From Alcaligenes sp. (lineage in GTDB: Bacteria > Pseudomonadota > Gammaproteobacteria > Burkholderiales > Burkholderiaceae_B), in NCBI GenBank assembly GCA_052109075.1, contig JBQEAN010000004.1, positions 15,692-79,691 on the forward strand: DNA of 64,000 bases, given 5' to 3'. Positions within the stretch are counted from its first letter, which is position 1, and every line of letters begins with the position of its first letter. Positions 28,296 to 63,118 of this stretch are shown piece after piece. Both the position numbers and the translations under genes were made by a program. Under the pieces are notes generated by a model. The model ran no database searches, was not told where the DNA came from, and worked only from the letters and a program-made list of their open reading frames with translations.

Positions 28296-31200
28296 GTGTC
28301 TCAAAATACAGGCAAGGGGGCTAAGGAGTTTGAAGCGTCCCGTACAGATATTAATAAAAGAAATACGTCGTCTGGTGCAATCGCCATTATTGGTATGGCG
28401 TTTCGCTTCCCGGGCGATCTATCGCAACCCGATCAGTTCTGGAATGCCTTAATTGAAAAGCGCGACCTAGTCACTGAAATCCCAGCCGATCGTTGGGCGA
28501 CGCAGGAGTTGCAGCACAATAAACGCTCCGAGCCAGGCCGTAGCGTTACTTTTTCTGCGGGCGTGTTGTCGCGTATCGACGAGTTTGATGCGGATTTTTT
28601 CGGTATTTCCCCACGCGAAGCGGCCTGGTTGGACCCTCAGCAGCGTTTGTTGTTAGAGCTGTCTTGGGAAGCCATGGAAAATGCCGGGGTATTACCATCG
28701 GCAATGGCAGGCAGTGATTGTGCCGTTTATGTCGGTATTTCCGGTCTGGATTACGGCATGCGTGGTCTGGACGATTTGGCCAGCCTTACCTCTCACATGA
28801 TGACCGGTAATACCTTGAGTATTGCCGCTAATCGCCTGTCTTATATTTACGATTTACACGGCCCTTCGATGGCCGTGGACACCGCCTGTTCGTCGTCGCT
28901 GGTCGCTTTACACCAGGCCTGCGCCAGCTTGCGTAATGGCGAGGCGTCGACTGCTTTGGTCGGTGGCGTCAATCTTTTGCTGCACCCGTATCCCTTTGTC
29001 GGCTTTACCAAAGCCTCCATGCTGTCGGCTGATGGTCGCTGCAAAGCATTTGATGCCGCTGGCAATGGCTATGTGCGCTCCGAGGGTGGGGCGGTTGTCA
29101 TGCTCAAGCCGCTGGAACAGGCGTTGGCGGATGGTGATGAAGTTCAGGCCGTGATTCTGGCCACGGGCGTGAATGCGGATGGTGCCCGCAAAACTGGTAT
29201 CACTATCCCTAGCTGTCAGGGGCAAATTGAATTGATGCGCTCCGTGCTGGAGCGTAGTGGCCTGACGGCTGCCGAGGTGGATTTTGTTGAAGCCCACGGC
29301 ACGGGAACGGCAGTGGGTGATCCGATTGAAACCACCGCCATTAGCGCAGTTTATGGCAAGGAGCGCGAGCAGCTCCTGCCTATCGGTTCGGTCAAAGCTA
29401 ATTTGGGCCATATGGAATCGGCCTCCGGCATGGCGGGTCTGGTCAAGGCAGTGTTGGCTTTGCAGTATCAAGCCCTGCCTCCTGCTCTGCATTTGAACAC
29501 TCCTAATCCCGCTATTGATTTCGATGGTTTGAACCTGGAACTGCTGACTCAGGCGCGTATGTTGCAGCGTGCGGATGGCAAGCCCTTGGTCGCCGGGGTG
29601 AACTCGTTTGGGTTTGGCGGTGCCAACGCCCATGTGTTGTTACAAGCGCCTGCCGCTGTTCCTGACACTCAGTCCAGTTTGCCGGAAGCGGGTTTGCCAC
29701 CCTTGGCCTTGTCGGCCAAATCGGAAGGGGCTCTGCGCGAGCTGGCAGGTCATTATGCAGACAGACTAGACGGCGCGACACAACAGCACTTTTACGACGT
29801 CAGTTACGCTGCTGCCCATCGTCGTCAGGCCTTGGCTCGTGGTTTGATCATTCAACCTGAAACGGTCACAGAAGGCGTAGCGCGGTTGCGTGCTTACGCT
29901 CAAGGCAAGGACACTCAGGGCCTGCAAACTGTGGATGCGCTGGAAAAAGAAGGCCAGCTGGCCTTTGTCTACGCCGGAAACGGAGCGCAGTGGTTGGGTA
30001 TGGGCGTGACCTTGTTGCGTGAGTCTCCTCGTTTTGCCGCTTTGCTGGCTGATCTGGACTCCATGATGATGCCACTGGCGGGTTTCTCCCTGCTGGAACA
30101 ATTGCAGGCCGAACCGTCCGCGTCCCGAATGGACGACACCACGGTTGCTCAGCCCTTGCTGTTTGCCGTGCAGGTTAGTGTGACGCGCATGTTGCGCGAA
30201 GATGGTGTGACGCCTGATGCTGTTGCCGGTCATAGCGTGGGCGAGATTGCTGCTGCCTGGGCTGCTGGGGCGCTGGAGCTGGAGCAGGCCATTCGCGTGA
30301 TTTGTGCCCGCAGTCAGGCGCAAGGTTTGACCCGTGGACAAGGCCGGATGGCAGTGATTGGCCAGTCGCTGGAAGCCGTCAACACCCTGCTGGAAAGTCT
30401 GGGTGACGATTTGGGCGTGAATGTGGCGGGTGTAAATAGCCCCTCCAACATTACCTTGTCTGGCAGCTTGGAAGGTTTGCAACGCATCCAATCCGCAGTG
30501 GAAGGCCAAAGTGTATTTTTCCGTTTGCTGGACCTGGACTACGCGTTTCACAGTCCCTATATGGATGGCTTGTTACCGCATCTGCGCAAAAATCTGGGTG
30601 ATTTGCAGCCCGGTCAGAATGCTCCAAAAGCTCGTTTTGTCTCGACGGTTACGGGTGCAGAGTTAGCAGCCCAAGAATTGGGCGTGGACTACTGGTGGCG
30701 CAATATTCGCGAGCCCGTGCAGTTTCAGCAGGCTATTGCCTGCTTGGCCAAGCAAGGTTGCCGCGTATTCCTGGAAATTGGCCCACATGCCATCTTGCAG
30801 CGTTATATCCGTGAAACCCTGACGCAAGCTGATGTGCAGGGGGTGGTGTTGTCGAGCCTGAGTAAGCAGGATGATGGTGCCCAGCGCTTGGCTGACACTG
30901 TCTTGCGTACCTTGGCTTTATTGCCCACCCAATTGAAAGCCCGGTTCCCCGTGCCCGGTAGTCCCGTGGATCTGCCTGTGTATCCGTGGCAGCGTGAGCG
31001 TCACTGGTACAAGGCCAGCACCGAAGGCATGCGTTCTATTGAGCGCCGCCGTGTGCATGATCTGCTGGGTTGGCGCTTGCCCGATACCGAGCTTGGCTGG
31101 GAAAACGTGCTGGACCCTATGGTTCTGCCTTGGCTAGCCGACCACAAAGTGGGTGGCGCAATGGTTTACCCCGGCGCTGCCTACCTGGAAATGGCCTTGG

Positions 31201-34200
31201 CCGCTGCCCGAGAGTGGCTGGGTGAGGCCCTGATTCTGGTGGACGAGCTAGATATTCTGGCCCCATTGGTCTTTGACGGTGAGCATGCTCGCAGCTTGCG
31301 CTTTGTGCTGAATCCACGCGATGGCAGCTTCCATATCAAGAGCCGTCAACGCCTGAGTCAGGACGAATGGGTGATTCATGCCAGTGGCCGTATTCTGGCT
31401 TCCGATGGACGCATGCCTTTGGCTGAGCTGCAGCCCTTGGAGCACTCGGACCTTCAGATCGATCGTGACCGACACTATCGCCTGGCCCATACCTTGGGTC
31501 TGGATTACGGCCCAGCCTTTCAAGGCTTGAAGGCTGCGCAAGTGCAGGGTACCCATCTGAGTGCCCAACTGGATATGCCTATCAGCCTGGAGCAAGACAG
31601 CTATCTGCTGCATCCGGCCTTGATGGACGTGTGCTATCAATCCTTGGTGGATTTCTTCGCACAGGATATTGAGGCAGGCCAAGGCGTGGCCTTGCTACCT
31701 GTGAAAGTAGGGCGCTTTGCCTTGTCCACAGAAGGGCAGGTGACCCATTTCCGTGCGCATTTGCGCCGTAGTAGTGCTCGTTCGGTGCTGGCGGATTTTG
31801 AACTGTATGGCGCTGATGGTCGCTTGCTGGCCAGCGCACAGGGCTGCCGTTTCCGCGCTGCTTACTTTTTGCGGCAGGATCGCCATGCGGTTTCCAACTG
31901 GCAAATTACCCCCTACCTGCGCCCTCATCCGCGTGATCAGCACGTTGCTATTACGGTGTCTACCGGACAACTGGCTACAAGGGGTTGGGCCGCCCTGGCC
32001 GACCAGCAACAGGAGCGCGAAAACTGGTTCCAGCAAACTCTGCCTTTGCTGGATGCGCTGAGCCTGTCCTTTATTTATGAGGCCTTCCAGAGTCTGTCGG
32101 CTCAGCCCTCTGTCATCAGCGCCGAAGTGCTAAGTGGCCCCTATGGCCGCTGGATGAGCGATTTGCTGCGTCGTGAGGAACTGCTGCAAGATAACGAGCA
32201 CGGATGGAGTGTGGTGGAGCAGGCAGACATGCCGCCCGCCCAGGATTTGTGGCGCACGATTTTGCAGGATTCGCCCAACAGTCTGCCGCAACTGACCCAG
32301 ATTGGTTCGGTTGGCCGTCAACTGCCTGCTTTGCTGCGTGGTGAGGTGTCAGGTCAACAATTGCTGGCTGCGTTGCGTCGCTCTCCCGTGGTTGAGGTGT
32401 TGTACGACGACGACCCCATGTATTTGGGTGTGCGCTTGGCGTTGGAAGCTCAGTTGCGTGAGCTGGCTGCTAACTTGCCAGCATCCCAGCGACTGCGAGT
32501 GCTGGAAGTAGCCGTAGGCCCAAGCGATTTGCCCAAGATCTTGGCGGCGTGCCTGTCTGAAGATCAGTTTGACTATGTGCTGGCCCTGCCGGATGCCGAT
32601 TTGCAGGCACGTCAGGCAACCCAGCATCATGGTCTGGCGAATGTGCAGGTTGTTGGTTTTGATTTGCAGGAATGGCAACTGGAACAGCCAGACGCTACTG
32701 CATTTGATGTCGTGATTTTGCGCCACAGCTTGCACCGTACGGTGCATGTGCCCCCCGCACTGGCGCGTAGCAAACAGTGGTTAGCCAGCGGTGGCGTGTT
32801 GTTGCTGGCCGAGTGTCACCCGGATTGGCACGCAGACTTCTTGTCGGGTCTGGACCAGAGCTGGTGGCATGAAACTGGCCATCAACAATCCTCCTCCTTG
32901 TTGTCGCCCGAAGGCTGGCACAAGGCCTTGGAGCAAGTCGGCTTTGAACAGGTGCAAACCGCCGTTGAGCCTGCCGCCCACGAGCTAAGTGAAGGTGCTT
33001 ATCTGCTATTGGCCAATGCGGCCAAGGCTCAGCCCGAACAAGATACAGAGTCCGTGCCTGCTGCCAATTGGGTGCTGCTGTTTGATGATGCCTCCCAGGC
33101 GCAGGCCCAGTCGTTGCAGATCCGTTTACAAGCGACAGGCCAAACCGTCAGTGCTCAAACCTGGCCCTTGGCAGCCGATGCCTTGGCCGAGCAGGTGGCG
33201 ATCAATGTGGTGCAGATGCTGGGCTGGGGCGACTCCGTTGCCGCAGCCAGTGATAGCAGCGGCAAACTGTTGAGCCTGGCTCAAGGTTTGTCCGCACGTG
33301 CTGCTCAAAGCCGCTTGTGGCTAGTGACGCAAGGTGGTGCCTTGCCAGCGATGGCAGATAAGCTGGACTGGACGGTTAACCCGGCCCAGTCGGCACTGTG
33401 GGGATTTGGCCGTGTCTTGATGAATGAGCTGCCCGCTTTGTCATGTTCCATGATTGATCTGGCCGGTGATACCGCCGCTAGCGATATCAGCATCCGTTTG
33501 GAACGTGAACTACTGTGGCCAGATAATGCCACTGAAATTGTCTTGTCCCACGACGCACGTCATACCTTAGTGCTCGAAGATGCTACTCAGGCAGAACAGG
33601 CCCAACTGAGCCAGGACGCCCGCTTCAAGCTGGACTTCCAAGTGCCCGGGCAACTGCGTAATCTGGAATGGCAGGCCGTTCAAGCTCCGAAGCTGGCGGC
33701 AGATCAGGTTGAAGTCCGCACGATGGCTGCTGGCCTGAACTTCCGTGACGTGATGTATTTAATGGGCTTGTTACCCGACGAGGCGGTGGAAAACGGGTTT
33801 GCCGGTGCCAGCCTGGGCCTGGAGTTTTCAGGCGTGGTGACGCAAGTTGGTGCTGACGTTAAAGATGTGTCGGTAGGCCAGCCAGTGATGGGCTTTGGCT
33901 CCTCCTGCTTTGCCAGCCATGTGGTGACGCGTGCCGATGCGATTGCTCCCATGCCAGAGGGCTGGGATTTTGAGGCCGCCGCTACAGTACCTACCGTCTT
34001 TTTCACGGTGTATTACGCCTTGACTCACTTGGCTCACATCCAGCCTGGTGAAAAAATTCTGATTCATGGTGCCGCAGGTGGCGTGGGGATCGCAGCGATT
34101 CAGCTGGCCCGCCATTTGGGTGCAGAAATCTATGCCACCGCCGGTACGGATGAGAAGCGTGTGTTTGCTTCCCTGCTGGGTGCGGATCGTGTGTTTGACT

Positions 34201-35876
34201 CGCGCAGCTTGAGCTTTGCTCAGGATGTGATGGATGCCACTGGCGGTGCAGGTGTTGATGTGGTGCTGAACTCGCTGGCGGGTGAAGCCATGCGTCGCAG
34301 CCTGGACGTCTTGAGCCCCTTTGGTCGCTTCCTGGAGTTGGGTAAACGCGACTTCTTCGAGAACACGCCCATTGGTCTACGTCCCTTCAAGAGCAATATC
34401 AGCTACTTCGGAATTGATGCCGACCAGTTATTGACGGGTCGTCCTGCCTTGGCGGGGCGCTTGTTTAAAGAGGTCATGGAGCTGTTCCATGATGGCGCCT
34501 TGTTCCCCTTGCCGTATCGCAGCTTCAATGCGGAGCATGTGGTTGATGCCTTCCGCGCTATGCAGCAGGCTCGTCATATTGGCAAACTGGTGGTGTCCTT
34601 GAAGGATGCCCAGCCTAGCCTGCCAGCGCCTCGAGCCGCTGCTATTGATTTGTCCGCACAGGGGGCTTGGCTGGTAACGGGCGGTTTGTCCGGCTTCGGT
34701 CTGGCTTCAGCTCAGTGGCTGGTCAAACGTGGCGTCAAATCGTTGGTACTGGCTGGCCGTCGGGGGGCTGATACCCCTGGTGCACAGGAGCTGCTGGAGC
34801 AGTTCCAGGCGCAGGGCTGCCGAGTACAAGTCGTGGCGTGTGATGTTACCGACTACACCGCTGTACAGGCCGTAGTGGCGCAGATTCAGGCTGGCGAAGC
34901 CCCGCTGGCGGGTGTGCTGCATGCCGCCGCCGTGTTTGATGACCGCCTGATTGCCAATATGGATCAGGACAGTCTGGATAAAGTGCTGCAAACCAAACTG
35001 GTGGGTGCCTGGAATTTGCATCAGGCGACACAGGATTTGAAACTGTCGCACTTCGTGCTGTATTCCTCGGTGACGACCGCTATTGGTAACCCCGGTCAGG
35101 CCAATTATGTGGCTGCCAACGCGGGCCTGGAAGGCCTGACGCGCCTGCGTCAGAACCTGGGCCTGGCTGCATCTTGCATTGCTTGGGGACCCATCGGTGA
35201 TGCAGGCTACCTGACCCGTAACGAAACCGTTAAAGACAGTCTTGGAAAGCGCTTGGGCAAGGCTCCTTTGCAGGCTGAGCTAGCTTTGGACCAATTGGAT
35301 CGCGTACTGGCAGTCAATGGTGAGGTCTCCATTGTGGCTAACTTCGACTGGAATGCATTGGCTCGTTTGCTGGCCTCGGCGCAAAGCGAGCGCTTTGCCA
35401 TCTTGAACCGAGCCTGTAAAGACCATGACTCCGGCAGTGATGGACAGGATATCCATGCGCTGATCGCCGGTAAAACACCGGAGCAGATTCACGCCTTAGT
35501 CGCCGATTGGGTGGCCCAGGAAGTGGCCAACATTTTGCGTACCGAGGTAGACCGTATCGAGACCCAGCGTTCTTTGCATGATCTGGGCATGGACTCCTTG
35601 ATGGCGGTGGAGTTGGCCTTGGGCCTGGAGCAACGCTTTGGCGTGCAATTGCCGGCCATGGTGCTGAATGACTCGCCGACTGTCTGGAACGTGGCGGGCC
35701 GTATTGTGGACAAACTGACCGCCGGTGGCGAGGATTCGGTGGAACAGGAAGCCGGGCATTTAATAGCCGATGTTGTACGGCAGCACGGGGACGATATGTC
35801 CGAAGCGGACTTGCAAAGTCTGGCGCAGGATGTACAGCGATTGGCAGAAAAAGGGACAACATTGATCAATGAGTAA
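28296..35876 (+). CDS. wcbR: Single-module reducing type I PKS: KS-AT-DH-(degenerate MT)-ER-KR-ACP, no TE (WcbR-like)
   Basis: KS: DTACSSS, EAHGTGT, GHME. AT: GHSVG, YAFHS. DH: HKVGGAMVYP. ER: IHGAAGGVG. KR: TGGLSGFG, YVAAN. ACP: LGMDSL. It sits in a capsule export locus. Confidence 0.93.
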   Translation: MSQNTGKGAKEFEASRTDINKRNTSSGAIAIIGMAFRFPGDLSQPDQFWNALIEKRDLVTEIPADRWATQELQHNKRSEPGRSVTFSAGVLSRIDEFDADFFGISPREAAWLDPQQRLLLELSWEAMENAGVLPSAMAGSDCAVYVGISGLDYGMRGLDDLASLTSHMMTGNTLSIAANRLSYIYDLHGPSMAVDTACSSSLVALHQACASLRNGEASTALVGGVNLLLHPYPFVGFTKASMLSADGRCKAFDAAGNGYVRSEGGAVVMLKPLEQALADGDEVQAVILATGVNADGARKTGITIPSCQGQIELMRSVLERSGLTAAEVDFVEAHGTGTAVGDPIETTAISAVYGKEREQLLPIGSVKANLGHMESASGMAGLVKAVLALQYQALPPALHLNTPNPAIDFDGLNLELLTQARMLQRADGKPLVAGVNSFGFGGANAHVLLQAPAAVPDTQSSLPEAGLPPLALSAKSEGALRELAGHYADRLDGATQQHFYDVSYAAAHRRQALARGLIIQPETVTEGVARLRAYAQGKDTQGLQTVDALEKEGQLAFVYAGNGAQWLGMGVTLLRESPRFAALLADLDSMMMPLAGFSLLEQLQAEPSASRMDDTTVAQPLLFAVQVSVTRMLREDGVTPDAVAGHSVGEIAAAWAAGALELEQAIRVICARSQAQGLTRGQGRMAVIGQSLEAVNTLLESLGDDLGVNVAGVNSPSNITLSGSLEGLQRIQSAVEGQSVFFRLLDLDYAFHSPYMDGLLPHLRKNLGDLQPGQNAPKARFVSTVTGAELAAQELGVDYWWRNIREPVQFQQAIACLAKQGCRVFLEIGPHAILQRYIRETLTQADVQGVVLSSLSKQDDGAQRLADTVLRTLALLPTQLKARFPVPGSPVDLPVYPWQRERHWYKASTEGMRSIERRRVHDLLGWRLPDTELGWENVLDPMVLPWLADHKVGGAMVYPGAAYLEMALAAAREWLGEALILVDELDILAPLVFDGEHARSLRFVLNPRDGSFHIKSRQRLSQDEWVIHASGRILASDGRMPLAELQPLEHSDLQIDRDRHYRLAHTLGLDYGPAFQGLKAAQVQGTHLSAQLDMPISLEQDSYLLHPALMDVCYQSLVDFFAQDIEAGQGVALLPVKVGRFALSTEGQVTHFRAHLRRSSARSVLADFELYGADGRLLASAQGCRFRAAYFLRQDRHAVSNWQITPYLRPHPRDQHVAITVSTGQLATRGWAALADQQQERENWFQQTLPLLDALSLSFIYEAFQSLSAQPSVISAEVLSGPYGRWMSDLLRREELLQDNEHGWSVVEQADMPPAQDLWRTILQDSPNSLPQLTQIGSVGRQLPALLRGEVSGQQLLAALRRSPVVEVLYDDDPMYLGVRLALEAQLRELAANLPASQRLRVLEVAVGPSDLPKILAACLSEDQFDYVLALPDADLQARQATQHHGLANVQVVGFDLQEWQLEQPDATAFDVVILRHSLHRTVHVPPALARSKQWLASGGVLLLAECHPDWHADFLSGLDQSWWHETGHQQSSSLLSPEGWHKALEQVGFEQVQTAVEPAAHELSEGAYLLLANAAKAQPEQDTESVPAANWVLLFDDASQAQAQSLQIRLQATGQTVSAQTWPLAADALAEQVAINVVQMLGWGDSVAAASDSSGKLLSLAQGLSARAAQSRLWLVTQGGALPAMADKLDWTVNPAQSALWGFGRVLMNELPALSCSMIDLAGDTAASDISIRLERELLWPDNATEIVLSHDARHTLVLEDATQAEQAQLSQDARFKLDFQVPGQLRNLEWQAVQAPKLAADQVEVRTMAAGLNFRDVMYLMGLLPDEAVENGFAGASLGLEFSGVVTQVGADVKDVSVGQPVMGFGSSCFASHVVTRADAIAPMPEGWDFEAAATVPTVFFTVYYALTHLAHIQPGEKILIHGAAGGVGIAAIQLARHLGAEIYATAGTDEKRVFASLLGADRVFDSRSLSFAQDVMDATGGAGVDVVLNSLAGEAMRRSLDVLSPFGRFLELGKRDFFENTPIGLRPFKSNISYFGIDADQLLTGRPALAGRLFKEVMELFHDGALFPLPYRSFNAEHVVDAFRAMQQARHIGKLVVSLKDAQPSLPAPRAAAIDLSAQGAWLVTGGLSGFGLASAQWLVKRGVKSLVLAGRRGADTPGAQELLEQFQAQGCRVQVVACDVTDYTAVQAVVAQIQAGEAPLAGVLHAAAVFDDRLIANMDQDSLDKVLQTKLVGAWNLHQATQDLKLSHFVLYSSVTTAIGNPGQANYVAANAGLEGLTRLRQNLGLAASCIAWGPIGDAGYLTRNETVKDSLGKRLGKAPLQAELALDQLDRVLAVNGEVSIVANFDWNALARLLASAQSERFAILNRACKDHDSGSDGQDIHALIAGKTPEQIHALVADWVAQEVANILRTEVDRIETQRSLHDLGMDSLMAVELALGLEQRFGVQLPAMVLNDSPTVWNVAGRIVDKLTAGGEDSVEQEAGHLIADVVRQHGDDMSEADLQSLAQDVQRLAEKGTTLINE

Positions 35877-37209
35877 GAAAGATCTAGCGCCAGGCAGTAA
35901 AGCACAATTGATCCAGCGCATCTTGGGGCGTAAAACCGGTCATGCGGCCAGTGATGGCCGCATGACGGCTCAAATCGCGGCCCACCAAGGCGCGTCCAGC
36001 CATATCCCAGAGTCCTTTACCCGCTTTGATCGTCATCCCGGTTACGAGAAAATGCTGGTGCCCAAGGCCATGGCCGATCGTCTGGGTGTACGCAATCCCT
36101 TTTTTCGCAGCCACGATGGTGTGGCCGCTGCACGCACCCGTATTGGTGGGCGCGATTACTTGAACTTTGCCAACTACAACTACCTGGGCCTGTCTGCTCA
36201 CCCTGAAGTGAACGCTGCGGCTAAAGCTGCAATGGACCAGTACGGCACATCGGCCTCGGCCAGTCGTTTGGTGGCAGGCGAGCGTCGGGTGCAGCGTGAG
36301 CTGGAAGAAGAGTTGGCACAGAACTACGACGTGGACGATTGCGTGGTGTTTGTCAGTGGGCACGCCACCAACGTCAGCACGATTGGTTACTTGTTCGGCC
36401 CCAAAGATCTGGTTATCCACGATAGCCTGATCCACAACAGTATTTTGCAAGGCATCCAGCTATCGGGTGCCGCTCGCCGCTCCTTCCCGCACAACGACAG
36501 CGCCGCATTAGAGCGCATCCTGGCCGAGATTCGTGGGCAGTTCGAGCGGGTGCTTATTGTCATCGAAGGCTTGTACAGCATGGATGGCGACATTCCGGAC
36601 CTGCCTGCATTTATTGACATCAAACGGCGCTATAAAGCCTTTTTGATGGTGGATGAAGCGCACGCATTGGGCGTGCTGGGCAAGACCGGCCGGGGCTCGC
36701 ATGAATATTTTGGTGTGGCGGGCCGTGATGTGGATATCTGGATGGGTACGCTAAGTAAGACTCTGGCAAGCTGCGGCGGCTATATCGCTGGCGACCGCGC
36801 GCTGGTGGAATTGCTCAAGTACGCCGCCTCTGGTTTTGTATACAGCGTGGGGATCTCGCCTGTGCTGGCCGCTGCCTCTTTAAAAGCTTTGCAGATCATG
36901 CACCGGGAACCTGAGCGTGTGCAGACCCTGCAAGAGCGGGGTAGTCAGTTCTTGAGCACGATGCGTTCGCTAGGAGTCGATACTGGCTATGCCCAAGGCT
37001 ATGCCGTTATTCCAGCAATTACGGGTAGTTCCTTGAAAGCAGTCAGGTTGTCTGGTCAGTTGTTTGATGCCGGCCTGAATGTGCAACCGATTATTCATCC
37101 GGCGGTAGAAGAAAAGGCTGCACGTCTGCGCTTTTTCCTGTCGGCCAGTCATACCCAGGATGACATTGATTTAGCGTGCGAAACCGTTCACACGCTCATG
37201 AAGAAATAA
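35869..37209 (+). CDS. wcbT: PLP-dependent alpha-oxoamine synthase (BioF/SPT family), WcbT-like
   Basis: NYLGL, HNSI, SMDGD, DEAH and GTLSK (PLP lysine). It overlaps the PKS 3' end by 8 nt. Confidence 0.9.
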   Translation: MSKKDLAPGSKAQLIQRILGRKTGHAASDGRMTAQIAAHQGASSHIPESFTRFDRHPGYEKMLVPKAMADRLGVRNPFFRSHDGVAAARTRIGGRDYLNFANYNYLGLSAHPEVNAAAKAAMDQYGTSASASRLVAGERRVQRELEEELAQNYDVDDCVVFVSGHATNVSTIGYLFGPKDLVIHDSLIHNSILQGIQLSGAARRSFPHNDSAALERILAEIRGQFERVLIVIEGLYSMDGDIPDLPAFIDIKRRYKAFLMVDEAHALGVLGKTGRGSHEYFGVAGRDVDIWMGTLSKTLASCGGYIAGDRALVELLKYAASGFVYSVGISPVLAAASLKALQIMHREPERVQTLQERGSQFLSTMRSLGVDTGYAQGYAVIPAITGSSLKAVRLSGQLFDAGLNVQPIIHPAVEEKAARLRFFLSASHTQDDIDLACETVHTLMKK

Positions 37210-37211
37210 GC

Positions 37212-38411
37212 ATGGCTCAATTACTACACATAGCAGTTAGCAAGATTGCCGCAATGGGACGCCCCGTTGTGGCGAGCACCCTGGTCGCTGTACTGGCCGG
37301 ATGTGCCACGATGCCGGATTGGATGTCGGCAGACGGCCCCAGCCGCCAGCAAGTACAGGAACGGCGCGATGGTCGTATCGAAGGGATCACCCTGGTCAAT
37401 GTGACAGACGACCTGACTAAGAAACTGGCTGGAAAGAAACGCCTGGGTGATTTTGCCGCTCAGTTTCCTAGCACAGGCTCAAACCATTACCTGATCGGTC
37501 CAGGCGATGTACTGGAAGTATCCGTGTGGGAAGCCCCGCCTGCCATGTTGTTTGGCACTATCTCGCTGGATGCTAAGGCCATGGGGACCACGACGAATGC
37601 CGTGGCGTTCCCTCATCAAATGGTTACCCCGGATGGCATGATCAGCATGCCATTTGCAGGACGTATCACGGTCAGTGGGCGTAATACCCAACAAATTGAA
37701 GAAAGCATTGCTAAGCGTTTGCAGGGTAAAGCCAATAATCCTCAAGTTCTTGTGCGAGTCATCCAGAACAACACGTCCAATGTGACCGTGGTGGGTGAGG
37801 TCAATCAAAGCACCTTAATGCCGTTGACTCCTAAAGGCGAACGCCTGCTGGATGCCTTAGCGGCCGGTGGTGGCGTCAAGCAAGCGGTCAACCGCATCGC
37901 GATCCAGCTTTCACGCGAACAAAATACGGCGACGATGGCGCTGGACACAATCATTCGTAGCCCTCAGCAAAACATCATGTTGAAGCCCGGCGATGTGATT
38001 ACGGCGCTGTACCAGAACCAAAGTTTCTCCATCTTGGGCGCAACGGGCAAGAACGAAGAAGTTCCGTTTGAGGCCCAAGGCATTTCTCTGGTGCAGGCTC
38101 TGGCGCGGTCGGGTGGCCTGGATACCTCCCGAGCTGATGCGCGGGGTGTTTTCATCTTCCGTTTTGAGGACGCTGCTCTGGTTGAGGGTGCCCCCGAGTC
38201 TGCTTTGCTCGACAAGAAGGGCGTGGTGCCCGTGGTCTATCAGATCGACTTGCGTGATCCCGGCTCTTTCTTTGTCACCCAGAATTTCCCGGTTCAGGAT
38301 AAGGACGTGATTTACGTCTCTAACTCCCCAGCAGCGGAGTTCCAGAAGTTCCTGCGCCTGGTGGTGTCGGTGGCCGTGCCTAGTGTGACTTTGAACAATA
38401 TGGTGGATTGA
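37212..38411 (+). CDS. wza: Polysaccharide export outer-membrane lipoprotein (Wza/WcbC/CtrA, OPX family)
   Basis: Lipobox LAGC, IGPGDVLEVSVWE, DGMISMPFAG and SLBB repeats. Confidence 0.93.
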   Translation: MAQLLHIAVSKIAAMGRPVVASTLVAVLAGCATMPDWMSADGPSRQQVQERRDGRIEGITLVNVTDDLTKKLAGKKRLGDFAAQFPSTGSNHYLIGPGDVLEVSVWEAPPAMLFGTISLDAKAMGTTTNAVAFPHQMVTPDGMISMPFAGRITVSGRNTQQIEESIAKRLQGKANNPQVLVRVIQNNTSNVTVVGEVNQSTLMPLTPKGERLLDALAAGGGVKQAVNRIAIQLSREQNTATMALDTIIRSPQQNIMLKPGDVITALYQNQSFSILGATGKNEEVPFEAQGISLVQALARSGGLDTSRADARGVFIFRFEDAALVEGAPESALLDKKGVVPVVYQIDLRDPGSFFVTQNFPVQDKDVIYVSNSPAAEFQKFLRLVVSVAVPSVTLNNMVD

Positions 38412-38453
38412 TGGTAGCCATGAAGGGGAAGGCTTTCTTTGACAGGAGCCAGT

Positions 38454-39242
38454 ATGACTGAACCGGTGCGTAGCCCCATGGCCGTCACCTGGTCGGTTTG
38501 GCGGGCTTTGCTTTTGCGAGAGTCTTTGGACCGTCTGTTTGACATGCGGGCGGCGTGGTTTTGGTTGTTGATGGAGCCGGTGCTGCATATCAGCTTCATC
38601 ACATTTATTTTTACAGTGATTCGCTTACGTACGGTTGGTGGTATTGACTCCTCAATTTGGATTGTGGTGGGGATGCTGGCCTTTTTCACGTTTCGGCGTA
38701 CCGCTATTCAAGTGATGTATGCAGTGGATAGCAATAAGCCGTTATTTGCTTATCGCCAGGTTCAGCCTTTTGACACCTCTGTTGCACGGGGGGTACTAGA
38801 GGCGTTCCTGATGGTATTAGTGACTTCGGTGATTCTTACAGGGGTGGCACTGCTCGGGCACGATATACGACCTGATGACCCTATCCAGGTTGTGATAGCT
38901 CTCTTTGGTTTGTGGCTGTTTGGTATGGGGTACGGATTAATTGCTTCTGTTCTTATAGCGCTAGTGCGGGAGACAGAGCACATTTTGAAAATTATGATGA
39001 TGCCGTTGTATCTTATTTCCGGCGTCATTATGCCTATCTCGGCGGTGCCTCAGCCATACCGCGACTTATTATTGTTTAACCCTTTAGTTCACGGGTTGGA
39101 GTTGGTGCGGCAGGGTTTTTCCAGCTACTACCACGTGGTGGCTGGTATCAGCATGGCGTACTTATATGCTTGGGGCGTAGTGAGTCTCTTTCTTGGCTTG
39201 CTATTGTACCGGCGCTTCACTCAACAGTTGGTGATGAAATGA
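38454..39242 (+). CDS. kpsM: Capsule ABC transporter permease
   Basis: ALLLRE, WLLMEP, LFAYRQVQPFD and NPLVHGLEL, with 6 TM helices. Confidence 0.93.
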   Translation: MTEPVRSPMAVTWSVWRALLLRESLDRLFDMRAAWFWLLMEPVLHISFITFIFTVIRLRTVGGIDSSIWIVVGMLAFFTFRRTAIQVMYAVDSNKPLFAYRQVQPFDTSVARGVLEAFLMVLVTSVILTGVALLGHDIRPDDPIQVVIALFGLWLFGMGYGLIASVLIALVRETEHILKIMMMPLYLISGVIMPISAVPQPYRDLLLFNPLVHGLELVRQGFSSYYHVVAGISMAYLYAWGVVSLFLGLLLYRRFTQQLVMK

Positions 39243-39901
39243 TCATCGTCAATGATGTTTATAAGCGATATAAGACTGCGCATGGTGTGGGTAGATGGGT
39301 TTTGGAGGGAATCAACTTAACGATTCCTCCTAAAGTAAACGTGGGCTTAATCGGCTCTAATGGAGCCGGTAAATCCACTTTGCTACGTTTGATTGGTGGG
39401 GTGGATCATCCTAATAAAGGAACGGTTCAGCGTTTGTGCCGGGTGTCGTGGCCTATGGGGAATGGGGGGCTGGAAGGCACTTTAACCGGGCGTCAAAACG
39501 CCAAGTTTGTCTGCCGCGTGCATGGGCATCAGGAGGATCTAGCCGATCGCCTGGCTTTTATTAAGGATTTTTCCGAGCTAGGCCAGGCCTTTGAGGAACC
39601 GATTTATACCTACTCCTCGGGCATGCGCTCCCGTCTCCAGTTTGCCTTGTCCTTTGCCTTCAATTTTGATGTGTATATCTCGGATGAGGTTACCGCAGCT
39701 GGCGACGCCGCTTTTCGTAAGAAAGCCGCAGACGCGTTTAGAACCATGACGGATCGTGCAGGCCTGATTATGGTCGCGCACGATAACAAAACTTTAAGAC
39801 AATTTTGCCAGGCTGGCGTCTGGCTGCATAAAGGGAAAGCGCACTGGTTTGACCAGATTGATGACGCGCTTAATGCCTACAAGGATTCACTTCCAAAATG
39901 A
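39239..39901 (+). CDS. kpsT: Capsule ABC transporter ATPase
   Basis: Walker A GSNGAGKST, signature YSSGM and DEVTAAGD. No C-terminal carbohydrate-binding extension. ATGA overlap with kpsM. Confidence 0.95.
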   Translation: MIIVNDVYKRYKTAHGVGRWVLEGINLTIPPKVNVGLIGSNGAGKSTLLRLIGGVDHPNKGTVQRLCRVSWPMGNGGLEGTLTGRQNAKFVCRVHGHQEDLADRLAFIKDFSELGQAFEEPIYTYSSGMRSRLQFALSFAFNFDVYISDEVTAAGDAAFRKKAADAFRTMTDRAGLIMVAHDNKTLRQFCQAGVWLHKGKAHWFDQIDDALNAYKDSLPK

Positions 39902-41088
39902 CAGATACACCTCAAGTCACTCCGCAAGCCAATAGCACCGCTTCAGACAAGCCCATCTCTACACAGCCTACGTTTTTAACGCGTGTCCGTTCCTGGTTCT
40001 CTTTGCGGCTATTTGATCATGCGGTACGTGTGATTCTAGTCTTGGCTATTTTGACGACTGCTTATTGGTTGGTGTTTGCGTCAGATCGCTATGTCTCTGA
40101 AGCCAATGTCATTATCCGCAAAACAGACTCGGTCGGGGCGCCTTCATTTGACTTGGGAATGTTGGTGTCTGGTGTAGCCTCTGTCGATCGAGCTAATCAG
40201 CTATTACTGCGTGACTATTTGTTGTCCGTGGATATGCTCAAAAAGCTCGATCAGGCCTTGGATTTACGCACGCACTACAGTTCTTCAGAGCATGATTTTG
40301 TGTCGAGGATGTGGTTTCAAGATACCTCGATGGAGTGGTTCCACCGTCATTATTTACGTCGTGTAGAGGTTGAGTTTGACGAGTTTTCGGGTGTGCTGCG
40401 CATTAAGGTGCAGGCCTATAACCCCGAGTTGGCGCAAGCTATTACGCAGCAATTGGTTCAGGAAGGTGAGCGTTATATGAACGTGCTGGGCCATGAAATG
40501 GCCCAAGTTCAGGTGAATTTTCTGGTAACTCAGGTTGATCAAGCTCAGGAGCGTTTCCAAAAAGCCAGTCAAGCCTTGTTGAATTATCAGAACGAGGCAG
40601 GGCTGCTTTCACCCCAGGCGACGGCAGAAAGTATCAATGCAATTGTTGCCGCTTTAGAGGGGCAGCGAGCTCAGCTGCAGACCCAACTTGCCTCTTTGCC
40701 TAAGTCTTTGGATCGTGATCATCCCAATATTTTGATGCTCAAGCAGTCTTTGAAAGCCGTAGACGAGCAAATTAAGCAGGAAAAACTCAAGTTGGCTACG
40801 CCATCAGGCGGGACCTTGAATAAGTTTGTGGAAGAGTTTTATCGCTTGGACATGAATGTCAAGTTCACTCAAGAGCTATACAAGTCATCGTTGACCGCTT
40901 TGGAAAAAGGCAGGATTGATGCTACCCGGATGCTGGAGAAGGTGTCCGTGCTGCAGTCACCCACTTTGCCTGAGTACCCGATTGAGCCGCGGCGTCTTTA
41001 CAACACATTGGTTACGTTACTACTGGCCTTGATGTTGGCGGGGATTCTGAAGTTGCTCAAGAGCATCGTGCTGGACCATGTGGATTAA
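39898..41088 (+). CDS. kpsE: Capsule export inner-membrane co-polymerase (PCP-3; KpsE/WcbD)
   Basis: Two terminal TM helices, ASDRYVSEA, DYLLS.DM, a coiled coil, and P.LPEYP.EPRR. Confidence 0.92.
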   Translation: MTDTPQVTPQANSTASDKPISTQPTFLTRVRSWFSLRLFDHAVRVILVLAILTTAYWLVFASDRYVSEANVIIRKTDSVGAPSFDLGMLVSGVASVDRANQLLLRDYLLSVDMLKKLDQALDLRTHYSSSEHDFVSRMWFQDTSMEWFHRHYLRRVEVEFDEFSGVLRIKVQAYNPELAQAITQQLVQEGERYMNVLGHEMAQVQVNFLVTQVDQAQERFQKASQALLNYQNEAGLLSPQATAESINAIVAALEGQRAQLQTQLASLPKSLDRDHPNILMLKQSLKAVDEQIKQEKLKLATPSGGTLNKFVEEFYRLDMNVKFTQELYKSSLTALEKGRIDATRMLEKVSVLQSPTLPEYPIEPRRLYNTLVTLLLALMLAGILKLLKSIVLDHVD

Positions 41089-41112: not shown

Positions 41113-42351
41113 ATGGCCGTTTCGCCCGTTCAGGTGGATCAGCCTGGCAATGTGTCTATGGATGGATGCATGCAGGCTTTACAGGACGAAAATCAGTTGT
41201 TATTGGACCAGCTGCATATTGTGCAAACCGAATTAGAGCGTTTGCACTATCGGGAGCAAGCGCACGCTCTGCCATCGACGATTATTCACATAGCGTCAGT
41301 GGACAATTTGCTGGTTGAAAAGCAGGCAGAGATTCTTCGCTATGAGGCCCTGGTTAAAGCACAAGGCGAAGTCCATGTTTTGCAGACGCAATTTGCATTG
41401 GCCAGCCAACTGGGTGAAATCCTGATCCAGGGTACTCATTCGGTCGGCGCTATGTTGTCTTTGCCGAATCGTTTGTTGAAGGTCTGGAAGCAGAACCGAC
41501 GTGAGGTACCTCCTAAGGAGTTGGGAGGGAAGCAGTTCGGAAAAGTGATAGATGCTTTCAAGGATGGAGGAGAGGAGATGGTAGAGGCCCTGCTGACCCG
41601 AGCCGCAGTATCTACCACGATTCAAGCGAGCGCCTGGACTGCTCTGGCTAGGGGACAGATGCAAACGAGTGCAGCAGCTGCTGCTAAGTTTGCACGCCGG
41701 GCTTACGCATTAGAACCTCGGTCGTTTAGGCAAAAATGGCTTGCTTTCCGTCTACATGAAGCTGGAGATCTATTAGAGGCAGAGGCTCTGGCTGCTTTGC
41801 TTCCAGATGGTGTCGGATTTAGTGAGTCGGAAGGACGCCAGCTTAATCGTCTTAAGGATGAAGCAAAACAGGATCGGCTTTATCGGGCGCGCAACGCTCT
41901 TGGGCATGCTGAGCGTGAAAATCAAGTACGGCATCAGTGGAATGAGTTGGCGGCCTCGCGTGATCAATTGGCCGTACAAGTTGCTTTGCAGTCTAAAAAA
42001 CTGACGGCTGCTCAGGGAACTGTCAACAAACTGCAACAAGAAAAGGCTGCAATGGGTTTGACTGTGCAGCAAGAGCAGCAGGCTTTGCTGCAGGCTCAAG
42101 CTTTGATGGCTTCCCTTCAAAAAGAAGGTGAGGAGCAAAAAGCGCTGGTTCAACAATGGTTTGAACAATGTACAACGCTTCAGTTTGGGGTGGCTGAGTT
42201 GACTCGATCCCGTAATGAGCAGGCGAGTCTGGCGGCCGAGCGGCTTGTTGAGCGTGAAGCACTAAAGCAGGAGTTGTCCGAGTTAGTTGCAAAACAGGGC
42301 GGGCGTGTTTCACCTAGAAGTCGAAAGCGTAGCCAAGATAGGAAGCGGTGA
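41113..42351 (+). CDS. Capsule-locus coiled-coil/TPR-like protein of unknown function
   Basis: N-terminal ENQLLLDQLHIVQTELE motif, central TPR-like helices, a long Gln/Glu-rich heptad region and a basic tail. Confidence 0.7.
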   Translation: MAVSPVQVDQPGNVSMDGCMQALQDENQLLLDQLHIVQTELERLHYREQAHALPSTIIHIASVDNLLVEKQAEILRYEALVKAQGEVHVLQTQFALASQLGEILIQGTHSVGAMLSLPNRLLKVWKQNRREVPPKELGGKQFGKVIDAFKDGGEEMVEALLTRAAVSTTIQASAWTALARGQMQTSAAAAAKFARRAYALEPRSFRQKWLAFRLHEAGDLLEAEALAALLPDGVGFSESEGRQLNRLKDEAKQDRLYRARNALGHAERENQVRHQWNELAASRDQLAVQVALQSKKLTAAQGTVNKLQQEKAAMGLTVQQEQQALLQAQALMASLQKEGEEQKALVQQWFEQCTTLQFGVAELTRSRNEQASLAAERLVEREALKQELSELVAKQGGRVSPRSRKRSQDRKR

Positions 42352-42513: not shown

Positions 42514-43635
42514 ATGAAGATTTTGACTGTATTTGGTACCCGCCCCGAGGCCATCAAGATGGCTCCTGTGGTCAAGGCTCTGGCTGCCGACTCTGCATTT
42601 GAGGCGCGTGTTTGCGTGACGGGTCAGCACCGCCAGATGCTGGATCAGGTTCTGGATATTTTTTCCATCAAGCCTGATTTTGACTTGAACCTGATGAAAC
42701 CTGGTCAGGATCTGTACGACATTACCAGTAACGTACTGTTGGGTATGCGCGATGTGTACAAACAGTGGCAGCCAGACATGATTCTGGTGCATGGAGACAC
42801 GACTACCACAATGGCAGCTGCGTTATCGGCGTACTACTCAAAGATTAAGGTTGGGCACGTAGAAGCAGGTCTGCGTACTCACAACAAGTACTCGCCTTGG
42901 CCTGAAGAGATGAATCGCCGCCAAGCTGGCGTTCTGGCTGATGTGCACTTTGCTCCAACCGAGCAATCACAGTCGCATTTGTTGCGTGAAGGAGTGGATC
43001 CTAAAACGGTGCATATCACGGGCAATACCGTAATTGATGCGCTGTTGGATGTAACCGCACGCGTACGCCAAGACTCGGAATTGCGCAGCCGTTTTGAAGC
43101 GCAATTCTCTTTTGTCAATCCAGCCAAACGCTTGGTTCTGGTGACGGGGCATCGTCGTGAGAACTTTGGTTCTGGGTTTGAAAACATCTGCTTGGCTTTG
43201 CGCCAGATTGCCTCGCGTGGTGATGTGCAGGTGGTATATCCCGTGCACTTGAATCCAAATGTTCAGGAACCAGTACGTCGTATCTTATCGGATGTTTCCG
43301 ATGTTCATTTGATCGAGCCACTGGATTATTTGCCCTTTGTTTACTTGATGGATCGTTGTGATCTTTTGGTAACGGACTCCGGGGGCATTCAAGAAGAGGC
43401 ACCTTCTTTGGGTAAGCCGGTATTGGTAATGCGAGACACCACTGAGCGCCCAGAGGCCGTGGATGCAGGAACGGTACGTTTGGTAGGGACAGAGACGCAA
43501 GCCATTGTCAGCGCTGCCACGCAGCTGCTGGACGACGCTGCTGAATATGAGCGTATGGCGCGGGCGCACAATCCCTATGGCGACGGCAAGGCCGCTACCC
43601 GCATTGGTGAAATTTTAAAAACTTTGATCTATTGA
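42514..43635 (+). CDS. wecB: UDP-N-acetylglucosamine 2-epimerase (non-hydrolysing)
   Basis: [37 protein letters not shown] and NPYGDG. Confidence 0.97.
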
Positions 43636-43649
43636 TTCGGAAAATCAGC

Positions 43650-44912: not shown

Positions 44913-44940
44913 TAGGCAGTGAGCTTTTGGTTTTAAGATT

Positions 44941-44975
44941 AATTAAATCGGCCTACATAGGCCGATTTAATTTTT
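44941..44975 (+). terminator. Strong hairpin/terminator inside the capsule locus
   Basis: Perfect 15-bp inverted repeat AATTAAATCGGCCTA-CA-TAGGCCGATTTAATT followed by TTT. Confidence 0.75.
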
Positions 44976-45006
44976 AGTATTAATTGAATCGGGGTAGTGG
45001 ATTATT

Positions 45007-47217: not shown

Positions 47218-47220
47218 ATA

Positions 47221-49353: not shown

Positions 49354-49359
49354 GAAAGT

Positions 49360-50958: not shown

Positions 50959-51027
50959 AAAGGCTCTCGTTATGGATGGGTTTGTTCAAAATAGAGCATG
51001 GGATTTTATATAAAATTTAATTAAGCC

Positions 51028-54198: not shown

Positions 54199-54202
54199 CG
54201 TA

Positions 54203-56604: not shown

Positions 56605-56619
56605 GGTGCGCTTGTTTCC

Positions 56620-61983: not shown

Positions 61984-62075
61984 AGGAAGTCAGCATACAG
62001 TGGGCTAGAACGCTATTGTACGAGGCTTTAGGCAGGCTTGAGCAGACCGGGCCGTAACGGCGCTTGTCCTGATTT

Positions 62076-63086: not shown

Positions 63087-63118
63087 GGCAAATACCTGGG
63101 GTCAGGAAAGTACGCGTT

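Follow-up and report, generated by a model that had tools for sequence, protein, structure and literature searches.

Gene sets that join a PKS to an alpha-oxoamine synthase (AOS) are already known as rkpA/G/H/I in Sinorhizobium, wcbR/T/P/Q in Burkholderia and sgaA/B/C in Pseudomonas fluorescens MYb115. MYb115 makes C24-C28 sphinganines together with their phosphoglycerol derivatives, the +154 Da "PG-sphingolipids", and both lipid classes disappear when either sgaA or sgaB is deleted (Peters et al., Nat Commun 2025, PMC12134224). PfSgaA is an iterative PKS, PfSgaB is an AOS that acts in vitro as an SPT specific for L-serine, and SgaC, an SDR, has been proposed as the 3-keto reductase (PMC12134224). 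The study lists 87 such clusters from Alcaligenes in its Supplementary Data 4, treats the free lipids as host-acting secondary metabolites, never mentions capsule and leaves the head-group enzyme unnamed (PMC12134224). It is also the report of PKS/AOS-derived long-chain sphinganines in Pseudomonas to which the initial annotation of the locus described here had referred.

Older genetics ties the same genes to capsules. The rkp-1 region of Sinorhizobium meliloti/S. fredii (rkpU, rkpA, rkpG, rkpH, rkpI, rkpJ) includes an FAS/PKS-like gene and is required for the K-antigen capsule, rkp-1 mutants being without K antigen. That such genes make a lipid carrier dedicated to the capsule was already proposed in the 1990s for rkp-1 and has been restated for wcbPQRT. 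We take rkpG, rkpH and rkpI to encode an AOS, an SDR and an LtaS-like membrane protein, respectively; the last gene of rkp-1, rkpJ, is homologous to KpsS, and Kdo-like sugars occur in the K antigens. In B. pseudomallei, wcbR, wcbT, wcbP and wcbQ lie within the ABC-transporter capsule locus CPS-I, where they are called capsule lipid biosynthesis genes. Knockout of wcbR reduces CPS-I, and in Tn-seq wcbQ and wcbT behave as other capsule genes do. CPS-I presumably also carries KpsC/KpsS homologues, wcbA and wcbO. The literature that we examined reports no lipid product of the wcb genes, and we found no paper that joins the 2025 sphingolipid chemistry with the older capsule genetics.

Two further systems frame the comparison. 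Group 2 capsules (E. coli, Neisseria) use KpsMTED exporter logic and place conserved genes around a variable sugar region, and their acceptor is a phosphoglycerol lipid (the terminus is phosphatidylglycerol-beta-Kdo, made via KpsS/KpsC). The Vi antigen, which has a VexE-dependent acylated terminus, is described as the one known variation that is free of kpsSC (PMC8760489).

An Alcaligenes capsule locus that opens with a PKS-AOS pair

The window that we analysed is a 64,000-nt stretch of an Alcaligenes sp. contig. It contains a 32-kb locus in which the exporter genes kpsD-M-T-E follow the PKS-AOS pair in the same orientation; an SDR gene and an LtaS-like gene come last:

28296..35876, + strand: iterative type I PKS of the SgaA/WcbR/RkpA type, 2526 aa (Pfam domains, active-site motifs)
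35869..37209, + strand: AOS of the SgaB/WcbT/RkpG type, SPT-like, 446 aa (class I/II aminotransferase fold)
37176..38411, + strand: KpsD/Wza-like outer-membrane polysaccharide export protein (Poly_export and SLBB; NCBIfam polysaccharide export)
38439..39242, + strand: KpsM, ABC-2 permease (PF01061; 6 hydrophobic segments)
39170..39901, + strand: KpsT, ABC ATPase (PF00005)
39898..41088, + strand: KpsE, inner-membrane adaptor of the BexC/CtrB/KpsE family (TIGR01010, E 2e-81)
41113..42351, + strand: conserved coiled-coil/TPR-like protein (zero Pfam/NCBIfam matches; 38 homologues, all unnamed)
42514..44912, + strand: WecB and WecC (UDP-GlcNAc 2-epimerase, UDP-ManNAc dehydrogenase), conserved left arm
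45007..52209, + strand: variable, strain-specific region with two large glycosyltransferases and two proteins without an assigned role (low GC, 36-50%)
52259..58098, + strand: right-arm polymer block with two CE4 deacetylase-like paralogues, a GT4, a GT-B-like transferase and a BcsA/PgaC-type membrane GT2
58043..58858, + strand: SDR of the SgaC/WcbP/RkpH type, presumed 3-ketosphinganine reductase (adh_short)
58848..60395, + strand: LtaS-like, WcbQ/RkpI-type membrane phosphoglycerol transferase (LtaS/GacH/EptA architecture; PF00884, sulfatase/LtaS family)

WecB and WecC are 59-98% identical across the Alcaligenes, Leeia and Desulfovibrio loci and the right-arm block is 45-98% identical in the same genera, while counterparts of the variable region are weak or absent in related loci. 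Scans of the window for promoters and terminators returned nothing distinctive. An ops/JUMPStart element was sought before the PKS; GGCGGTAG has three matches in the window, which is not above chance, and none in the leader at 27.3-28.3 kb. In one RNA-seq run from a related organism, contigs of low depth (85-99% alike) cover parts of PKS, AOS, kpsD and wecB/C; this is weak evidence, consisting of contigs only and open to DNA carry-over.

The PKS is predicted to hand its chain to a serine-using AOS

Pfam resolves the PKS into a single reducing module, KS-AT-DH-(inactive MT-like)-ER-KR-ACP, with KS at residues 28-400, AT at 557-862, DH at 921-1188, ER at 1802-2100, KR at 2123-2301 and ACP at 2404-2468. 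The methyltransferase-like region (residues 1395-1554) is missing the GxGxG SAM motif. The other domains retain their motifs, namely DTACSS (C195), HGTGT (H334), NLGH, GHSVG, HxxxGxxxxP at 950, GGVG, YVAAN at 2271 and GMDSL, and Pfam finds neither a thioesterase nor a reductase release domain anywhere in the 2526 residues. The PKS and AOS genes overlap by 8 nt; their junction, ATGAGTAA, places the AOS start codon 8 nt within the PKS frame. Open reading frames, Pfam and junction thus all agree with the initial annotation, which had described a fully reducing single-module PKS without a thioesterase, overlapping by 8 nt with an SPT/BioF-family enzyme. This arrangement recurs: in 76 of 80 related loci the gene immediately before the AOS homologue encodes a PKS (3 of the 4 exceptions are on short contigs), so the pairing is not due to chance.

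The AOS aligns with the SPT structure 3a2b (E 4e-64) and keeps the SPT catalytic residues His189, Asp263, His266, Lys297 (the PLP lysine) and Arg418/420; it also has an N-terminal extension of ~75 aa that is absent from SPT. Because its specificity is not readable from the sequence, and it scores below the NCBIfam cut-offs of BioF, Kbl and SPT alike, the enzyme might instead use an amino acid other than serine (glycine, alanine), or the product of the PKS chain might be non-sphingoid, giving a deoxy-sphingoid or other aminolipid. We regard this as very unlikely, since the AOS is 58-62% identical to its homologues in Pseudomonas, Bordetella and Ralstonia loci with a KpsS/KpsC layout. Within that range, identity to the AOS of the Pseudomonas loci is 60-62%, and these loci resemble the MYb115 layout as described. 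Together with the Alcaligenes clusters in the published census (PMC12134224), this points indirectly to orthology with PfSgaA/PfSgaB. Given such probable orthology, sphingolipid chemistry is well supported, and it is from orthology, not from sequence features, that serine use and PKS chain length are inferred for Alcaligenes.

By its published description, the MYb115 sga cluster is like the window in having an iterative PKS beside an AOS and an SDR in the same cluster (PMC12134224). In related Pseudomonas loci, the SDR gene has the LtaS-like gene on one side and KpsS on the other, and KpsC-like genes are close by. The window differs from them in that kpsDMTE come straight after the AOS and KpsS/KpsC are missing. 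It likewise differs from rkp-1, which it resembles by description rather than by sequence alignment, in being without KpsS/KpsC; its homology to the Burkholderia Wcb proteins is as stated in the papers.

The LtaS-like enzyme may act on the lipid rather than on the polysaccharide

The final two genes of the locus, encoding the SDR and the LtaS-like protein, overlap by 11 nt, and the two adjoin each other in 15 related loci. The SDR carries the TGxxxxxG and YxxxK motifs and a C-terminal hydrophobic helix (segment 247-265) and is by sequence a generic classical SDR. Its true start is likely the GTG at 58086, which follows an AAAGGAG Shine-Dalgarno sequence.

The top PDB sequence match of the LtaS-like protein is GacH (Streptococcus pyogenes; 5u9z, E 8.5e-14). 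An AF2 model (pLDDT 83.8) shows 5 TM helices and a catalytic domain; its top fold match is again GacH (6dgm, E 9e-14), and EptA and MCR-1 match over the full length. In the sequence and in the modelled fold, the protein is thus nearest to a phosphoglycerol transferase. SES, GANT (Thr278), ENH and GDH are invariant, which corresponds to the catalytic Thr and the metal ligands, and so 5 TM helices, an alkaline-phosphatase-fold domain, the Thr nucleophile and metal ligands are all shared with GacH, LtaS and EptA. GacH and LtaS draw glycerol phosphate from phosphatidylglycerol, and the likeness to GacH, together with the retained catalytic residues, fits a glycerol-phosphate head group of +154 Da. 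The differences from GacH, LtaS and EptA are an identity of ~20%, a sphingoid base in place of a glycan as the proposed acceptor, and a loop charge opposite to that of EptA.

That charge bias bears on topology. In 118 of 118 homologues of the LtaS-like protein, loops on the catalytic-domain side carry more K+R (5.7) than loops on the opposite side (1.1). E. coli EptA served as the control because the other sulfatase-family genes of the genome itself all encode soluble proteins, and the same count for EptA gave 2 versus 9, the opposite bias. The positive-inside rule by itself therefore predicts a cytoplasmic catalytic domain.

GacH itself modifies a polysaccharide rather than a lipid. The LtaS-like enzyme could accordingly add glycerol phosphate to the exported polysaccharide in the periplasm, as GacH and OpgB do, with another enzyme making the PG-sphingolipids; GacH is the nearest solved relative, WcbQ was interpreted in this way in a Cobetia capsule paper, and, to our knowledge, every characterised LtaS/GacH/EptA enzyme acts outside the cytoplasm. 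Four observations make this improbable: the predicted cytoplasmic domain; the +154 Da on sphinganines, which equals one glycerol phosphate; the position of the gene, which stays beside the SDR gene whatever the strain-specific sugar genes; and its distribution. In a co-occurrence sample of 300 genomes of the order (16 AOS-positive, 284 AOS-negative), all 9 genomes with the LtaS-like (WcbQ) gene are AOS-positive and none of the 284 AOS-negative genomes has it. We therefore favour action on the lipid, although the head-group step is not universal, because 11 of 40 PKS-AOS genomes, three Bordetella isolates among them, are without a WcbQ-like gene with this query.

The lipid module travels with capsule export genes

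In the same 300-genome sample, KpsE is present in 13 of 16 AOS-positive genomes versus 9 of 284 AOS-negative ones. Around PKS-AOS in 80 loci, the enriched families are KpsE, D, M, S, T and C, the LtaS-like family and SDR, and the usual gene order where KpsS/KpsC exist is KpsC-KpsS-SDR-LtaS-like. The bracketed layout of the window, PKS-AOS-kpsDMTE at one end and SDR-LtaS-like at the other, is kept in Alcaligenes, Leeia and Desulfovibrio, genera that span phyla. Co-occurrence, operon structure and the published rkp-1/wcb genetics thus support a link between the lipid module and capsule export.

The link would also hold if the module made a sphingolipid that is released or stays free in the membrane, sharing its regulation with the capsule and never attached to it, for example an outer-membrane retention or companion lipid or a host-acting one. 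MYb115 accumulates free sphinganines and PG-sphingolipids with a host effect and with no capsule invoked, and KpsE went undetected in 3 of the 16 AOS-positive genomes of the sample. We nevertheless consider a free lipid unlikely: the SDR and LtaS-like genes stand in one run with those for KpsC and KpsS, which build the lipid-linked primer of the capsule, parts of the module stand on either side of the exporter genes in the three phyla-spanning genera, and capsule is lost or reduced in rkp-1 and wcbR mutants. The initial annotation had proposed a sphingolipid pathway tied to the capsule, and this is supported in part. Its chemistry is supported by the MYb115 work (PMC12134224), the SPT residues and the GacH likeness, and its capsule link by co-occurrence, operons and genetics, while covalent anchoring of the capsule by the lipid is conjecture; the idea itself is not new. 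What is new here are the comparative results, the window adding a further example of a gene set that has already been catalogued.

Alcaligenes loci are without KpsS and KpsC

A search for PF05159, the family of the KpsS/KpsC beta-Kdo transferases, found no member in the locus or in its own genome (86% complete). The same search was negative for three Alcaligenes isolates, for Leeia oryzae and for the complete chromosome of D. desulfuricans. Neither kpsF nor kpsU is in the locus, which together with the absence of PF05159 sets it apart from group 2; shared with group 2 are the KpsMTED exporter logic and the variable sugar region flanked by conserved genes. The Vi system likewise has a Kps-type exporter without KpsS/KpsC, but the window has the PKS/AOS/SDR/LtaS-like module instead. 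No VexE match was found by NCBIfam among the five unassigned proteins of the locus, the only Vi-type similarity is that of the exporter parts to VexA and VexD, and the combination of a VexE acyltransferase and TviB-E genes that marks a Vi-type locus is absent.

Candidates for a substitute were considered within the locus. The 41113-42351 protein comes after KpsE in most loci of the KpsS/KpsC-free subtype (it is present in L001-L004, L011, L017, L043 and L068); we rejected it as a stand-in for KpsS, as it is coiled-coil/TPR-like and has no enzyme signature. The right-arm glycosyltransferase block was rejected as a strict replacement of KpsS/KpsC: Bordetella pseudohinzii (L047) has the same block, at 56-72% identity, next to KpsC and KpsS that are intact, and because of this coexistence it is more likely polymer machinery. 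Its GT2 has a weak Pfam match to GT21 (ceramide glucosyltransferase), and cellulose synthase and PgaC match better, so that a lipid-specific transferase gains no support.

A proposed sphingolipid primer for the capsule

We lean towards reading the locus as a Kps-type Alcaligenes capsule locus of the rkp-1/wcb/sga family, whose four enzymes make a single-chain sphingolipid on which the capsule is started. As orthology suggests, the PKS would act iteratively, keeping a saturated acyl chain on its ACP until it is very long, and the translationally coupled AOS would free the chain by decarboxylative condensation with L-serine, giving 3-ketosphinganine as shown for PfSgaB. The SDR would convert this to sphinganine, following the proposal in the literature. 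The LtaS/GacH-like enzyme would then, we infer, transfer glycerol phosphate from phosphatidylglycerol to the C1 hydroxyl of sphinganine, on the cytoplasmic face to judge by the charge distribution. The resulting sphinganine-1-phosphoglycerol would be the +154 Da species of MYb115; it resembles lyso-phosphatidylglycerol and would be an analogue of the group 2 acceptor.

This very-long-chain sphingolipid is probably the base for the capsule sugar chain and may also be its anchor. As the acceptor, it would receive the polymer via a KpsS/KpsC Kdo linker in most relatives; in Alcaligenes, where KpsS/KpsC are missing, the locus's own glycosyltransferases would start the polymer directly. The same lipid would be exported by KpsMTED and hold the polymer in the outer membrane. 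A broader proposal, which we put forward only tentatively, is that cytoplasmic sphinganine-1-phosphoglycerol, made by an LtaS-family enzyme of inverted topology, is the usual Kps primer in Betaproteobacteria and their neighbours and replaces phosphatidylglycerol-Kdo in Alcaligenes, Leeia and Desulfovibrio. If true, an ABC-transporter capsule would have a second route, after that of the Vi antigen, by which it is started and anchored without KpsS/KpsC.

The identity of the rkp-1/wcb lipid bears on how capsules are started, exported and retained in Burkholderia, Bordetella-like organisms, rhizobia and many environmental Betaproteobacteria, and the KpsS/KpsC-free Alcaligenes type offers a clean test system for the lipid-primer idea. 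In the sampled order, 13 of the 22 KpsE-positive genomes carry the AOS, which suggests that the E. coli phosphatidylglycerol-Kdo model may apply to a minority of Kps exporters there.

A polyketide synthase and an alpha-oxoamine synthase open a capsule locus

The capsule locus of the window lies between a type VI secretion cluster and genes suggestive of nitrous-oxide reduction.

Features of the capsule locus and its surroundings
1-24679: type VI secretion cluster, directly upstream of the capsule locus
Between this cluster and the capsule locus, minus strand: two transporters
28296-60395, plus strand: capsule-locus gene run, with short gaps or overlaps between genes
28296-35876, plus strand: polyketide synthase (PKS; SgaA/WcbR/RkpA type)
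35869-37209, plus strand: alpha-oxoamine synthase (AOS; SgaB/WcbT/RkpG type)
Immediately after the AOS: KpsD-like protein, KpsM, KpsT and KpsE
41113-42351: 412-aa coiled-coil plus TPR-like protein with an N-terminal LLxQLHxVQEELE motif
Last two locus genes, overlapping each other by 11 nt: SDR (SgaC/WcbP/RkpH type) and a membrane LtaS-family protein (WcbQ/RkpI type; 58848-60395, plus strand)
60418-63634, minus strand: pgi, apbE and nosL, the downstream boundary of the capsule locus

The nosL/apbE pair points to a nitrous-oxide reductase cluster starting at this boundary. On the upstream side, the type VI secretion cluster looks complete, with TssB/C sheath proteins, TssF, TssG, TssJ, TssK, TssM and TagF as well as an OmpA-domain TssL and a PEGA-domain protein. 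The assembly comprises 3.48 Mb in 109 contigs (86% complete), and the best DNA match is a food-fermentation metagenome.

The product of the first locus gene is a 2526-aa type I PKS with KS, AT, DH, methyltransferase-like, ER, KR and ACP regions, in which a domain search found no release domain. Catalytic motifs are intact in KS, AT, DH, ER, KR and ACP, and the GxGxG SAM motif is lost from the methyltransferase-like region, as would suit an unbranched product. The start of the AOS gene lies 8 nt ahead of the PKS stop, at ATGAGTAA. Its product, 96% identical to the A. pakistanensis AOS, keeps the PLP lysine and its partner residues when aligned to bacterial serine palmitoyltransferases and to Kbl (E about 1e-64), and reaches none of the curated subfamily cut-offs. 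Elsewhere in the genome are one further AOS homologue (34% identical, on a different contig) and three phosphopantetheinyl transferase genes. The initial annotation had described a PKS without a thioesterase, an 8-nt overlap with the AOS, wza-kpsMTE in the same orientation, and the SDR and LtaS-like genes last, and this description is correct as written. The SDR gene also overlaps the preceding GT2 gene by a few codons. Its listed ORF begins at TTG 58043; GTG 58086, which is preceded by an AAAGGAG Shine-Dalgarno sequence and overlaps the GT2 stop by 13 nt, is more likely the true start.

In Pseudomonas fluorescens MYb115, production of C24-C28 sphinganines requires SgaA (PKS) and SgaB (AOS), as does that of species heavier by 154 Da, interpreted by the authors as phosphoglycerol sphingolipids (PMC12134224). 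PfSgaB is a serine-specific serine palmitoyltransferase in vitro, and SgaC, an SDR in the same cluster, is the proposed 3-keto reductase (PMC12134224). In the census of that study, 6,101 homologous clusters were counted, most of them in Burkholderia; Alcaligenes has 87, Desulfovibrio 17 and Sinorhizobium 241 (Supplementary Data 4; PMC12134224). The window gene set is a further member of this known, already catalogued family. By orthology to the characterised system, the PKS would build a chain, the AOS would condense it with serine and the SDR would reduce the product, which is the likely course of the pathway. This pathway had been proposed from the window together with a mention of PKS/AOS-derived sphinganines in a Pseudomonas strain; such a strain has indeed been described (MYb115; PMC12134224), the steps of chain synthesis, serine condensation and 3-keto reduction agree with the published ones, and the assignment of the head group to the LtaS-like protein is reasonable.

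The lipid genes are linked to capsule genes

The sphingolipid study mentions capsule, wcb or a head-group enzyme nowhere (PMC12134224), and our literature search found no paper joining sga sphingolipid chemistry with rkp-1/wcb capsule genetics. Genes of these types have been known within capsule loci for a long time. The Sinorhizobium rkp-1 region is described as responsible for synthesis and modification of a dedicated lipid carrier for the K antigen, and loss of wcbR lowers CPS-I. In Burkholderia and Cobetia, wcbPQRT are labelled capsule lipid biosynthesis genes with unknown function, and wcbQ and wcbT score as capsule genes do in Tn-seq.

We surveyed 80 loci around AOS relatives and clustered all of their ORFs. 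The PKS precedes the AOS in 76 of the 80; the exceptions are three short contigs and one locus (L079) with no PKS beside the AOS. Apart from the PKS, all of the enriched neighbour families are capsule components: KpsE (24 loci), KpsD (20 plus 5), KpsM (20), KpsS (19), KpsT (18), KpsC (16), the LtaS-like protein (16) and the SDR (15). Among 300 genomes drawn evenly from the same order, in which related genomes are not independent, an AOS orthologue was found in 16, KpsE in 22 and both in 13, with the AOS in only 3 of 278 KpsE-negative genomes. The LtaS-like protein was found in 9 genomes, all AOS-positive (0 of 284 AOS-negative). Positives occur in seven families or more. This gene linkage and the mutant phenotypes of relatives are consistent with a product lipid that would serve as the capsule's acceptor and anchor; the main rival is that a free lipid merely accompanies the capsule.

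The LtaS-like protein is a candidate head-group enzyme predicted to face the cytoplasm

One glycerol phosphate corresponds to 154 Da, the shift seen in MYb115, which makes the LtaS-like protein the obvious candidate for the glycerol phosphate step left unassigned in the published work (PMC12134224). Sequence and a predicted model show five hydrophobic helices in this protein and, after them, a domain with the alkaline-phosphatase fold. Among solved structures, the phosphoglycerol transferase GacH, LtaP and LtaS are nearest to it in both sequence and fold, and the model in its entirety superposes on EptA and MCR-1 at full length. Homologues share an invariant Glu of SES, Thr278 of GANT, His of ENH and Asp-His of GDH; the family is large, with 2,707 clusters found at an E-value under 1e-30, and its members carry the names LTA synthase family, capsular biosynthesis protein or MdoB-like. 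A second rival explanation has this enzyme decorating the glycan in the manner of GacH. We infer instead, from its fold and residues, the mass shift and the exclusive co-occurrence with the AOS, that it would transfer glycerol phosphate to the sphinganine.

The two loops on the same side as the catalytic domain carry 8 Lys+Arg, versus 2 on the other side. Averaged over 118 homologues, the counts are 5.7 and 1.1, and all 118 show the bias. E. coli EptA, which shares the five-helix plan and has a periplasmic domain, gave 2 versus 9 with the identical script, a loop charge opposite to that of WcbQ-type enzymes. With this one control, the positive-inside rule predicts that the catalytic domain of WcbQ-type enzymes faces the cytoplasm; the basic loops could instead bind an anionic donor lipid. 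The cytoplasm, the predicted location of this domain, is where the PKS, AOS, SDR, KpsS and KpsC work.

Two locus layouts differ in KpsS and KpsC

In one layout (Pseudomonas, Achromobacter, Thiothrix, Geobacter and many MAGs), PKS-AOS faces a divergent run of KpsC, KpsS, SDR and LtaS-like genes. We deduced the same KpsC-KpsS-SDR-LtaS-like order from coordinates in six more genomes because the gap from KpsS to the LtaS-like gene, about 850 bp, is the size of the SDR. In the other, that of the window, kpsDMTE directly follows the AOS. PF05159 (KpsS/KpsC) is present in 33 of 40 PKS-AOS genomes and absent from seven: three Alcaligenes isolates, Leeia oryzae, a complete Desulfovibrio desulfuricans chromosome and two Steroidobacteraceae MAGs. 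The window's own genome (86% complete assembly) likewise has none. In Alcaligenes, Leeia and Desulfovibrio one LtaS-like gene is present, on the same strand and at the far locus end, 17-27 kb past the AOS. Two features make this copy worth experimental work: a layout free of KpsS/KpsC and an LtaS-family enzyme predicted to face inward.

In a whole-locus comparison, a low-GC variable middle lies between two conserved arms: on the left PKS, AOS, KpsD, M, T, E, coiled-coil protein, WecB and WecC, and on the right two CE4 deacetylase-like proteins, GT4, GT-B-like transferase, BcsA/PgaC-like membrane GT2, SDR and LtaS-like protein. The middle, at 44000-52200, has 36-50% GC versus 55-59% in its surroundings, and its genes have no equivalents in sister Alcaligenes loci, suggesting a strain-specific cassette that has been exchanged. 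E. coli group 2 loci have a similar conserved-variable-conserved plan, whereas the window has the lipid module in place of Kdo-linker genes. Both arms of 28296-60395 are collinear with the Leeia oryzae and Desulfovibrio desulfuricans loci (L085-L088; 35-78% protein identity), and this collinearity between betaproteobacterial Alcaligenes and Leeia and a Desulfovibrio suggests that the whole locus was transferred across phyla.

The right-arm block at 52259-58098 is 45-71% identical in Leeia and Desulfovibrio. Its cellulose-synthase/PgaC-type membrane GT2 and two CE4 deacetylase-like paralogues follow a logic like that of PNAG-type synthase systems, but here the set sits inside an ABC-transporter capsule locus. 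We considered the right-arm transferases as a replacement for KpsS/KpsC; their position fits, but the same block adjoins intact KpsC and KpsS in Bordetella pseudohinzii. In our view, therefore, the block mainly serves to make the polymer, and in Alcaligenes one of its enzymes must begin the chain as well.

The 412-aa coiled-coil protein, which matches no Pfam family, follows KpsE in most KpsS/KpsC-free loci (Alcaligenes, Leeia, Desulfovibrio, Desulfomicrobium and two MAGs) and may act in chain-length control or as a scaffold. Longer relatives have extra domains, in one case an FkbM methyltransferase.

Finally, a Herbaspirillum MAG has a compact locus, about 24 kb long and lacking the variable middle (L019; G015:C70:194368-195804). 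As read up to GT2, its order is PKS, AOS, KpsD, M, T, E, WecB, WecC, GT4, GT and GT2, and its LtaS-like gene lies just beyond the end of the retrieved stretch. This locus could serve as a minimal system for reconstitution.
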